The notes: generated by a model not told the origin, from the sequence alone. Positions 57,898-59,286 are shown, counted from the first letter of the stretch. The stretch is 64,000 bases of DNA from Escherichia phage P479 (MW269952.1), one strand, 5' to 3'. A program made the numbers and translations.

Positions 57898-58237
57898 TCT
57901 TGCATCACATGTTTATCAATTGGCTGAATATGATATTGGTGCCAATTTATTATTAGGGATTGTCACCGCCATGCTTGGCGGTTTGGTTGGTCTGGTAATG
58001 ACCACGGTTATGGCTGCAATCGAGGGAGTGATGCCCATTGAGATGGGTTTCTTTATGATAATCGCTCCGGCTGTTGTGTCTTATTTTATCCCTGTTGTGT
58101 ATGATATCTGTCACACAAACGCCGTGAATGCTCCTAGTCGGAAGAGATATGCTTCAGCAATGGCTGAGTATAATAAGTTCCTGAACAAAACAAAACGTAA
58201 TGACCTTGAAACCTTTATTAAGGAATGTAAATCATGA
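57884..58237 (+). CDS. small membrane protein (two to three predicted TM helices) with C-terminal FIKECKS junction motif
   Basis: 117 aa from ATG 57884 with AAGGAGG upstream. Confidence 0.45.
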   Translation: MERPSLASHVYQLAEYDIGANLLLGIVTAMLGGLVGLVMTTVMAAIEGVMPIEMGFFMIIAPAVVSYFIPVVYDICHTNAVNAPSRKRYASAMAEYNKFLNKTKRNDLETFIKECKS

Positions 58238-58524
58238 ATAAAATTGAAATTGCTATCCCCAAGTATTATGATGAGAAATCTGCAGAAAAAGCTATCTATT
58301 CTCTTCTAAATAAGACCTCTGAAATTGAAAAACACTGTGAAGAAATCGCAGATGAATATGGTATCCAATTTGGTACCGGTGATTATGGTTCAGGCCGTAC
58401 ATATTATCCTGTCGGTTATGAATGCTCCCAGTGGTTTAAAGATGAAATTGAAAACAACGGCGGTGAAGTTGAAAACGGTGTCGTTACAGTTGGTGCTTGG
58501 GTCTCCTCTTCGGCAATGTGCTAA
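58234..58524 (+). CDS. acidic small protein, member 1 of a C-terminal W-x-SS-x-x-C family
   Basis: 96 aa, ends GAWVSSSAMC; ATGA overlap with upstream gene. Confidence 0.5.
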   Translation: MNKIEIAIPKYYDEKSAEKAIYSLLNKTSEIEKHCEEIADEYGIQFGTGDYGSGRTYYPVGYECSQWFKDEIENNGGEVENGVVTVGAWVSSSAMC

Positions 58525-58533
58525 GGAAATGCT

Positions 58534-58815
58534 ATGATGAATGATTACAGTAAAAATAAAGAACTGGCTAACGCAGTAAATGACATCCATAAAGCTATTC
58601 GTCGTGCCGAGGAAATTGCAAACAAATATGAGACTCATTTTAATATATACCCTGCTCGCGGTATGGGCGGTGACTATTATTCTCCTGGCGCCTTGAAAGC
58701 CGACCTTGCTCGTTGGGAAGAACACGGCCATCCTGAATGGGCTATTGTTAATACCCATGACTACACAACTGACCTGGAAAAAGGCGGTTGGGTGTCCTCT
58801 TCTTCTGAATGCTAA
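58534..58815 (+). CDS. acidic small protein, member 2 of the C-terminal W-x-SS-x-x-C family
   Basis: 93 aa, ends GGWVSSSSEC. Confidence 0.5.
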   Translation: MMNDYSKNKELANAVNDIHKAIRRAEEIANKYETHFNIYPARGMGGDYYSPGALKADLARWEEHGHPEWAIVNTHDYTTDLEKGGWVSSSSEC

Positions 58816-58824
58816 GGAAATAAA

Positions 58825-59043
58825 ATGACTGCTAAAACTGTTAAAGAAATTGAAAAACAAATCCGTGCACTAATCTGTGAAGGTCTGACTGCGGCGGATG
58901 AAACCGGCGAACACTTTCACGCCGGGGGTGAAGAATATATTCCAGCTTCCAGTCCGGAATATGACGATTATGAATGGGTTCGTGATGAATATTGTATTCC
59001 AGAAGGTGAAGGTTTCTGGTTTAACTCCTCTATGTCTTGCTAA
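58825..59043 (+). CDS. acidic small protein, member 3 of the C-terminal W-x-SS-x-x-C family
   Basis: 72 aa, ends FWFNSSMSC. Confidence 0.5.
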   Translation: MTAKTVKEIEKQIRALICEGLTAADETGEHFHAGGEEYIPASSPEYDDYEWVRDEYCIPEGEGFWFNSSMSC

Positions 59044-59052
59044 GGTGTTAAA

Positions 59053-59286
59053 ATGACTACTGCTGTTGAACATGCTGAATTAGAAAAAGCCGCCCTTGAA
59101 CTGGCTGCGCTGTATAAGAAAGTAAAAGATATGGCTTCTGCTCAAGATTTCGGTGTCGAGCTTGATGATTATGACGGCGAAGTCCGTCTTGAAGACTGGC
59201 TGAACAGCTCTTGTTATGGTGAAGAAGCTGGTCGTACCTTCGTTGCTCGTGCCGATGGTAAAATCTGGTACCCAAGCTCATGTTAA
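59053..59286 (+). CDS. acidic small protein, member 4 of the C-terminal W-x-SS-x-x-C family
   Basis: 77 aa, ends KIWYPSSC, with an additional internal WLNSSC. Confidence 0.5.
   Translation: MTTAVEHAELEKAALELAALYKKVKDMASAQDFGVELDDYDGEVRLEDWLNSSCYGEEAGRTFVARADGKIWYPSSC

Follow-up and report, generated by a model that had tools for sequence, protein, structure and literature searches.

Phage arrays of small acidic proteins with a shared Ser-Ser-Cys tail are linked to the gene for a Pol-beta-superfamily nucleotidyltransferase

Enzymes of the Pol-beta fold transfer nucleotides to hydroxyls on RNA, drugs or proteins. Among them, GlnD, GlnE and MntA transfer nucleotides to hydroxyls of proteins. 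CitX and MdcG have a nucleotidyltransferase sequence motif and load a nucleotide-derived prosthetic group onto a serine of a small acidic carrier protein, which is their partner in the CitX-CitD and MdcG-MdcC pairs. The present study concerns a 64,000-nucleotide (nt) stretch of Escherichia phage P479 (MW269952.1; hereafter the window), in which four tandem genes for small acidic proteins with a common C-terminal tail lie upstream of a gene for a predicted nucleotidyltransferase. In a bacterial pair of comparable layout, menA1 lies upstream of menT1; the long central helix of MenA1 (68 aa) blocks the active sites of MenT1 and binds two protomers, and the C-terminal residues of MenA1, unresolved in the structure, point away from the complex (PMC10435456). 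During auto-phosphorylation, a Ser/Thr hydroxyl is the target of MenT/AbiEii active sites (PMC11375011; bioRxiv 10.64898/2026.01.19.700257), and nucleotidyltransferase systems of the DUF1814 family are among the known defences against phages (bioRxiv 10.64898/2026.01.19.700257).

The P479 locus is a two-part module, of which the small acidic proteins are the variable-copy half and the Pol-beta-superfamily nucleotidyltransferase is the constant half. By analogy, it is most like the bacterial nucleotidyltransferase-partner pairs MenAT, AbiE, HepT-MntA, GlnD-PII and CitX-CitD. It differs from MenA1-MenT1 and AbiEi-AbiEii (DUF1814) in its enzyme, which consists of DUF7277 and DUF7275 and has no DUF1814 sequence match. 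MenAT and AbiE are bacterial and have one partner, whereas the present module is phage-encoded and has 1-6 paralogous partners; MenA and AbiEi have no counterpart to a conserved acidic fold with a Ser-Ser-Cys tail. HepT-MntA (type VII), GlnD-PII, CitX-CitD and MdcG-MdcC resemble the module that we propose in that a nucleotidyltransferase modifies a hydroxyl of an adjacently encoded partner. However, their partner folds and target motifs are unrelated to the tail proteins, and their enzymes target an internal loop residue, whereas the modification proposed here would fall on a C-terminal tag common to an array of paralogues. The LPXTG-sortase and PEP-CTERM-exosortase systems are alike in placing one short C-terminal tag on many bodies, co-occurring with a single enzyme gene; these are transpeptidase systems for sorting to the membrane or cell wall, whereas the parts of the present module look cytoplasmic and its enzyme is a nucleotidyltransferase. 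The small partners resembled no known antitoxin, substrate or DNA mimic. We describe the protein family, its conserved tail, the fold and intact catalytic motif of the enzyme and the linkage of the two genes; physical contact between the parts, the modified residue and the biological output are what we infer.

A family of small acidic proteins with a conserved tail

The array lies in a Gaprivervirus (T4-like) region with 95-96% identity to phages TH41, P896 and SP18, and its member 1 is identical to VR7 ORF142c. An earlier note on this DNA had described four consecutive, tightly coupled, acidic open reading frames (ORFs) with Cys-terminal tails, and an internal WLNSSC in member 4. ORF and charge analysis bore out the former (Table 1) and the sequence the latter. 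Net charges of members 1-4 were -9, -5, -11 and -8, and isoelectric points (pI) ranged from 4.25 to 5.43. When both strands were scanned, no other window ORF of at least 30 aa ended in W..SS(..)C; the chance of four adjacent Cys termini is ~1e-7 (1.7% of the residues of long ORFs are Cys). All three inter-member spacings had a 9-nt gap, the start of member 1 overlapped the stop of the upstream e.3-like gene (ATGA), and the ATG of the ORF following the array overlapped the Cys codon of member 4. The N-terminal helix had been thought short; in the AlphaFold2 model of member 1 (predicted local distance difference test 89, predicted template modelling score 0.74) the predicted helix spans residues 14-42, a length of 29 residues. 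Model confidence of the last six residues was below that of the core, which would fit an exposed tail. Ratios of nonsynonymous to synonymous substitution rates against a Dhakavirus-like relative were 0.23, 0.27 and 0.13 for members 1, 2 and 4, respectively. These values indicate that purifying selection acts on the three proteins.

All four members matched PHROG 899 (function unknown), with expect (E) values of 3.7e-23, 8.4e-20, 3.1e-10 and 8.6e-10 for members 1-4, and each match extended to the C-terminal end of the profile. Because they share this family, the profile matches mark them as true paralogues. Searches of Pfam, NCBIfam and PADLOC gave no family match for any of the four. The tail was kept in orthologues of Mosigvirus, Karamvirus, Winklervirus, Moonvirus, Klebsiella phages, Aeromonas Tulanevirus and Ishigurovirus. 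An iterated profile applied to 92 loci gave 196 distinct members, 181 of them Cys-terminal, and an exhaustive profile search of 1.84 billion protein representatives gave 164 hits, of which 147 were new. Conservation of the tail Cys in orthologues, which the earlier note had posed as a test of its proposal, was clear in these new relatives: Cys was the last residue in 136 and second to last in six, and the remaining five comprised two spurious long proteins, two fragments without the tail end and one protein ending in another residue. In the 196 members, Trp stood 7 or 5 residues before Cys, with Ser-Ser two residues after Trp. From these alignments, the core motif is best written as W-hydrophobic-x-S-S, followed by Cys after zero or two residues. 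W, S-S and C were the most conserved positions of the family, and the bodies split into at least five types; the double-motif type was also found in Aeromonas, Shewanella and Klebsiella phages and in marine phage contigs.

Two departures from this pattern were seen. Near-identical orthologues on marine contigs end in EWTSSSQN (L011 3202-3384) and EWTSSSQNC (L048 1710-1895); the lack of terminal Cys in the former reflects either rare natural variation or a difference in assembly. In the RB69 reference, the type-1 gene is frameshifted after ...EIVSQW, giving ORF139c and ORF138c (L117 5735-6041, - strand). Either the type-1 gene is dispensable in the laboratory phage or the record contains a sequencing error. 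The small-protein family (member 1) occurred in at least 367 phage records and the enzyme family in at least 731. No paper was found on PHROG 899, DUF7275, DUF7277 or the RB69 orthologues. The small acidic proteins form a real, widespread phage family.

The number of members varies between related phages. SP18 and VR7 have five and the window has four, the missing gene being of the 65-aa type. The earlier note had reported an identical junction after each stop codon and had considered duplication through it the probable route of expansion of the family. The repeat is real, with TGCTAAGGAAAT occurring exactly after members 1 and 2; however, the sequence after member 3 is TGCTAAGGTGTT, and member 4 ends in TCATGTTAA (TGTTAA). 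A repeat scan detected a 24-nt repeat (D1) in three copies and a 46-nt repeat (D2) with 74% identity. In the one-gene insertion/deletion relative to SP18, the alignment breakpoint fell within near-identical DNA comprising the W-V-S-S-S-x-E-C-coding stretch, the stop codon and the ribosome-binding site, a pattern that unequal recombination between repeated tails would leave. Expansion through the repeat was thus supported, but the DNA involved includes the tail-coding sequence and not the intergenic junction alone. Judged from these alignments, recombination inside the repeated DNA of tail-coding stretch and junction underlies the variation in copy number.

Acidity is a property of nearly the whole family: 97-98% of members were net negative, with a mean charge of ~-9. 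Like Ocr, ArdA and Arn, the tail proteins are small, strongly acidic and encoded in phage variable regions, and it was on size and acidity that the earlier note had proposed a DNA-mimic anti-restriction role. They had no sequence or fold similarity to those three proteins, and no evidence supporting such a role was found. More broadly, the charge would suit anti-defence decoys against host enzymes, acting as nucleic-acid mimics or as inhibitors of AbiE, MenT-like toxins or cyclases of cyclic-oligonucleotide-based anti-phage signalling systems, the phage enzyme then being a mere neighbour or serving to activate the decoys. Related phages differ in copy number and in body types, as an arms race predicts, and the array occupies a variable region between tRNA genes and gene e. 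Decoys or DNA mimics would nevertheless leave both the tail and the dependence on the enzyme (see below) unexplained, and we regard them as unlikely.

The linked nucleotidyltransferase

The 319-aa product of the gene downstream of the array gave a confident model with a Pol-beta-type nucleotidyltransferase fold. Residues G6, S7, D25, D27 and E69 were invariant in 32 homologues (identity down to 43%), conforming to the Pol-beta catalytic motif hG[GS]...D-x-[DE] plus third carboxylate, a signature of Pol-beta-type nucleotidyltransferases. The closest solved structures were MenT1 toxin (score 10.1), ANT(2'') (8.7) and MenT3/TglT (8.6), and further matches were TM1012 (7.8), MenT4 (7.7) and LnuA (7.2). 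TRNA-modifying MenT toxins and antibiotic nucleotidyltransferases are thus the nearest structural relatives. Invariant K125-L-S-H128-R129 and D193-H-D195 resemble, and may or may not correspond to, the C-terminal motifs III (K...R) and IV specific to the DUF1814/MenT/AbiEii family. Pfam searches of the 32 homologues at E values up to 10 gave DUF7275 and DUF7277 only, with no match to DUF1814, and the enzyme had no PADLOC hit. No literature was found on phage-encoded MenT-like enzymes in T4-like phages.

A protein with DUF7275 only, equivalent to enzyme residues ~110-315, is encoded by Streptomyces phage Blueeyedbeauty (gp205, L096 3378-4133) and by Gordonia and Mycobacterium phages. This protein of actinobacterial phages lacks the N-terminal transferase domain, and no tail proteins were found near the Blueeyedbeauty locus, the only such locus scanned. 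Its occurrence suggests that DUF7275 is an independent functional unit.

The C-terminal domain of the enzyme contains many invariant His, Asp, Glu and Cys residues, including C243, C272, H128, H174, H194 and H198. Together with the invariant thiol of the tail, of which the double-motif type brings two, these residues could be taken to favour a metal or redox centre built by the tail cysteines, with the paralogues forming hetero-oligomers. Linkage to the enzyme would then reflect co-regulation or a shared metal site involving Cys243, Cys272 and the histidines. However, the spacing from W-x-x-S-S to Cys varies (0 or 2 residues, sometimes with one residue after Cys), which is poor geometry for a fixed site, and Ser is not a typical metal ligand. 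A centre of this kind is quite improbable.

Linkage was assessed in 80 IMG/VR loci fetched around enzyme homologues and in 92 loci in the whole comparison. An iterated hidden Markov model found 227 family ORFs in 82 of the 92 loci, every one on the enzyme strand, and 195 of the 198 family ORFs in the IMG/VR loci were upstream of the enzyme gene. A motif search added diverged family members in further loci. Every comparison locus first fetched had the array followed by a homologue of the enzyme gene. When enzymes were clustered at ≥60% identity, 17-18 of the 22 lineages had tail ORFs within 5 kb. The pairing also occurred in non-T4-like phages: in a 149.5-kb Klebsiella phage, six tail ORFs immediately precede the enzyme gene, Pseudomonas Otagovirus phiPsa300 has the enzyme and 5-6 tail members, Shewanella phage Thanatos-2 has the enzyme and one double-motif member, and in Stenotrophomonas phage Mendera the tail members are downstream of the enzyme gene instead. 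The pair was found on marine contigs and on ~360-kb contigs as well. The reciprocal test was a DNA pattern search for the type-1 core. It matched 20 contigs, of which 19 had the enzyme gene nearby and the twentieth was only 3.6 kb long; with that limit, no tail protein was seen without an enzyme gene. Dependence looks one-sided, the small proteins depending on the enzyme, whose family is the broader of the two. Because the acidic proteins almost always adjoin the enzyme gene, joint action of the two is probable.

An array of short ORFs beside one enzyme, with Ser upstream of a C-terminal Cys (tails S-S-S-x-x-C or S-S-C), also recalls precursors of ribosomally synthesised and post-translationally modified peptides. 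Tail Ser would be converted to dehydroalanine, to which the terminal Cys would add, giving a lanthionine- or aminovinyl-cysteine-type ring; in aminovinyl-cysteine peptides, the last residue is Cys and the spacing is S-x-x-x-C or S-x-x-C. However, Pfam and PHROG annotation of ten neighbouring proteins revealed no LanB-, LanM-, LanKC- or LanD-type enzyme, and S-S-C tails are too short for normal rings. Moreover, prochlorosins and similar precursors conserve the leader and vary the core, whereas the present proteins have folded bodies and a conserved tail. We consider such chemistry very improbable, the least likely of the explanations discussed here.

The tail as a possible modification tag

The tail is conserved, the acidic bodies vary, copies vary in number, the adjacent enzyme is intact and dependence is one-sided. 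On these grounds our best reading, which we hold tentatively, regards the tail as a tag inserted into the enzyme active site, either as a nucleotide attachment site or as a plug. In its specific form, in which tail Ser is nucleotidylylated or phosphorylated and the terminal thiol anchors the tail or reacts further, the proposal falls well short of an even chance. The folded acidic body of each small protein would dock on the enzyme, and the flexible W-hydrophobic-x-S-S-(x-x)-C tail would reach the catalytic pocket. There, the Ser hydroxyl would replace the usual ribose or drug hydroxyl and receive a nucleotide (O-nucleotidylylation) or be phosphorylated, and the terminal thiol near Ser would help to anchor the tail or carry out follow-on chemistry. 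The tail would thus be a modification tag shared by several different bodies, all clients of one enzyme; bodies and copy number would differ between phages, with tag and enzyme constant.

A plug without modification is the core of an alternative in which the small proteins are antitoxin-like regulators in the manner of MenA1. Helix and acidic body would cover the substrate groove and the Ser/Cys tail would occupy the metal site as a pseudosubstrate, such that a potentially toxic tRNA- or RNA-modifying enzyme is kept off until needed, or its specificity is retuned. As with menA1 and menT1, small genes lie upstream of a nucleotidyltransferase gene on the same strand, and MenT1 is the best structural match of the enzyme. 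The long helix predicted for member 1 would suit this role, the double-motif type could bridge two enzyme molecules, and the reciprocal search found no tail protein apart from an enzyme. On the other hand, two to six different inhibitors should be superfluous for one enzyme, the enzyme stays intact without small proteins in some phages, and the small proteins resemble neither MenA1 nor AbiEi in sequence or fold. Conservation here is highest in the C-terminal tail, whereas the C-terminus of MenA1 faces away from its complex. Regulators of this type are possible, though doubtful.

Several observations weigh against the tag reading. An inhibitor role accounts for the same data almost as well, and serine modification alone does not explain the invariant Cys. 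Within Straboviridae, co-location is in part inherited synteny, and much of it could be; a homologue of e.6 is also near the module in all Straboviridae. The enzyme has a pI of 6.1 and is not basic overall. A few lineages (L036, L062/63/66, L085) have an intact enzyme and no detectable tail protein, which implies either another substrate or partners diverged beyond detection. We nevertheless rank the modification tag slightly above the inhibitor, because different bodies share one tail, a double-motif type exists and the enzyme survives without partners. A wider claim is that, in phages of several unrelated lineages, a MenT-like enzyme covalently modifies a changing set of small acidic proteins tagged at the C-terminus with W-x-x-S-S-(x-x)-Cys, which would amount to an unrecognised tagging system. 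The nucleotide would be linked to Ser, possibly with subsequent elimination and capture by the terminal thiol, and the modified proteins would act on host nucleic-acid or defence enzymes. This wider claim is improbable on present evidence.

Neighbouring features and biological meaning

Positions of the module and associated features are given in Table 1.

Table 1. Features of the array, the linked enzyme gene and their surroundings in the window
Feature	Position	Strand	Description
Candidate MotA-type middle promoter	58149-58174	+	ATGCTTCA-N12-TATAAT (sequence ATGCTTCAGCAATGGCTGAGTATAAT); 85 nt upstream of member 1; weak call
Member 1	58234-58524	+	96 aa, type 1; long helix, then GDYGSGRTYYP, then tail GAWVSSSAMC
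Member 2	58534-58815	+	93 aa, type 2; PARGMGGDYYSP, then tail GGWVSSSSEC
Member 3	58825-59043	+	72 aa, type 3; EEYIPASSPEY, then tail GFWFNSSMSC
Member 4	59053-59286	+	77 aa, double-motif type; internal DWLNSSCYGE and terminal KIWYPSSC
Tail-coding and junction repeat, copy 1	58492-58537	+	Repeat scan
Tail-coding and junction repeat, copy 2	58783-58828	+	Repeat scan
Tail-coding and junction repeat, copy 3	59038-59061	+	Repeat scan; shorter copy
Four small filler ORFs	59280-60311	+	75, 109, 66 and 55 aa; between array and enzyme gene
Linked nucleotidyltransferase	60325-61284	+	319 aa; DUF7277 N-terminal, DUF7275 C-terminal (Pfam); PHROG 2141

The candidate MotA-type promoter was one of six candidate sites of this type found by a regular-expression scan of the window, and it occurred at the same offset in eight Gaprivervirus/Dhakavirus loci. 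It lies inside the coding end of the e.3-like gene, and its conservation may merely mirror that of the protein. Upstream, a GC-rich perfect hairpin (56969-56989; AGGGGGCAAAGCCCCCT on the - strand) is located between the e.6-like gene and the next ORF, and was scored terminator-like on the minus strand only.

The filler ORFs of 75, 109, 66 and 55 aa were present in 11, 11, 2 and 7 comparison loci, respectively, and in Aeromonas phages the enzyme gene directly follows the array. The filler ORFs are not a conserved part of the module. The e.6 gene was considered as a component and rejected as synteny, being present in T4, which appears to lack the enzyme. A 228-aa gene downstream of the enzyme gene was likewise rejected as a third component, since it was found in just 23 of the 80 loci. 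This ORF (61344-62030, + strand) belongs to PHROG 1843, has no Pfam hit and contains an H-H-D-D motif that, from its sequence, might bind metal. Its conservation is unusually high: identity is 75-93% across Tevenvirinae and still 77-81% in Aeromonas Ishigurovirus, against only ~45% for the adjacent enzyme there.

Linkage to tRNA genes was rejected as a rule, a tRNA gene being within 5 kb in only 6 of 51 distant loci. Individual cases were seen. In the 165.5-kb contig IMGVR_UViG_650627040 (L036 3615-4567), seven tRNA genes (Ile, Lys, Glu, Asn, Asp, Met and Gln) lie directly upstream of the enzyme gene, in the slot usually taken by the array. In Thanatos-2, two tRNA genes directly follow the enzyme gene (L095 4459-4609); the same pair, Met-CAT and Arg-TCT, is adjacent in the window at 53068-53220 (+ strand), ~5 kb upstream of the array.

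Among sequenced phage genomes, at least 731 encode the enzyme family and at least 367 the small-protein family, many T4-like therapy candidates being among them. The finding pairs two Pfam domains of unknown function with one large PHROG, and provides a concrete example of a gene array that grows and shrinks via a short repeated coding tail. Bacterial counterparts of such enzyme-partner pairs are toxins and anti-phage defences; if our reading is true, a phage-borne pair whose tagged partners can grow in number would give phages a novel means of using or countering that chemistry. If the tail is a covalent modification tag, the module would represent a new kind of phage protein-tagging system.
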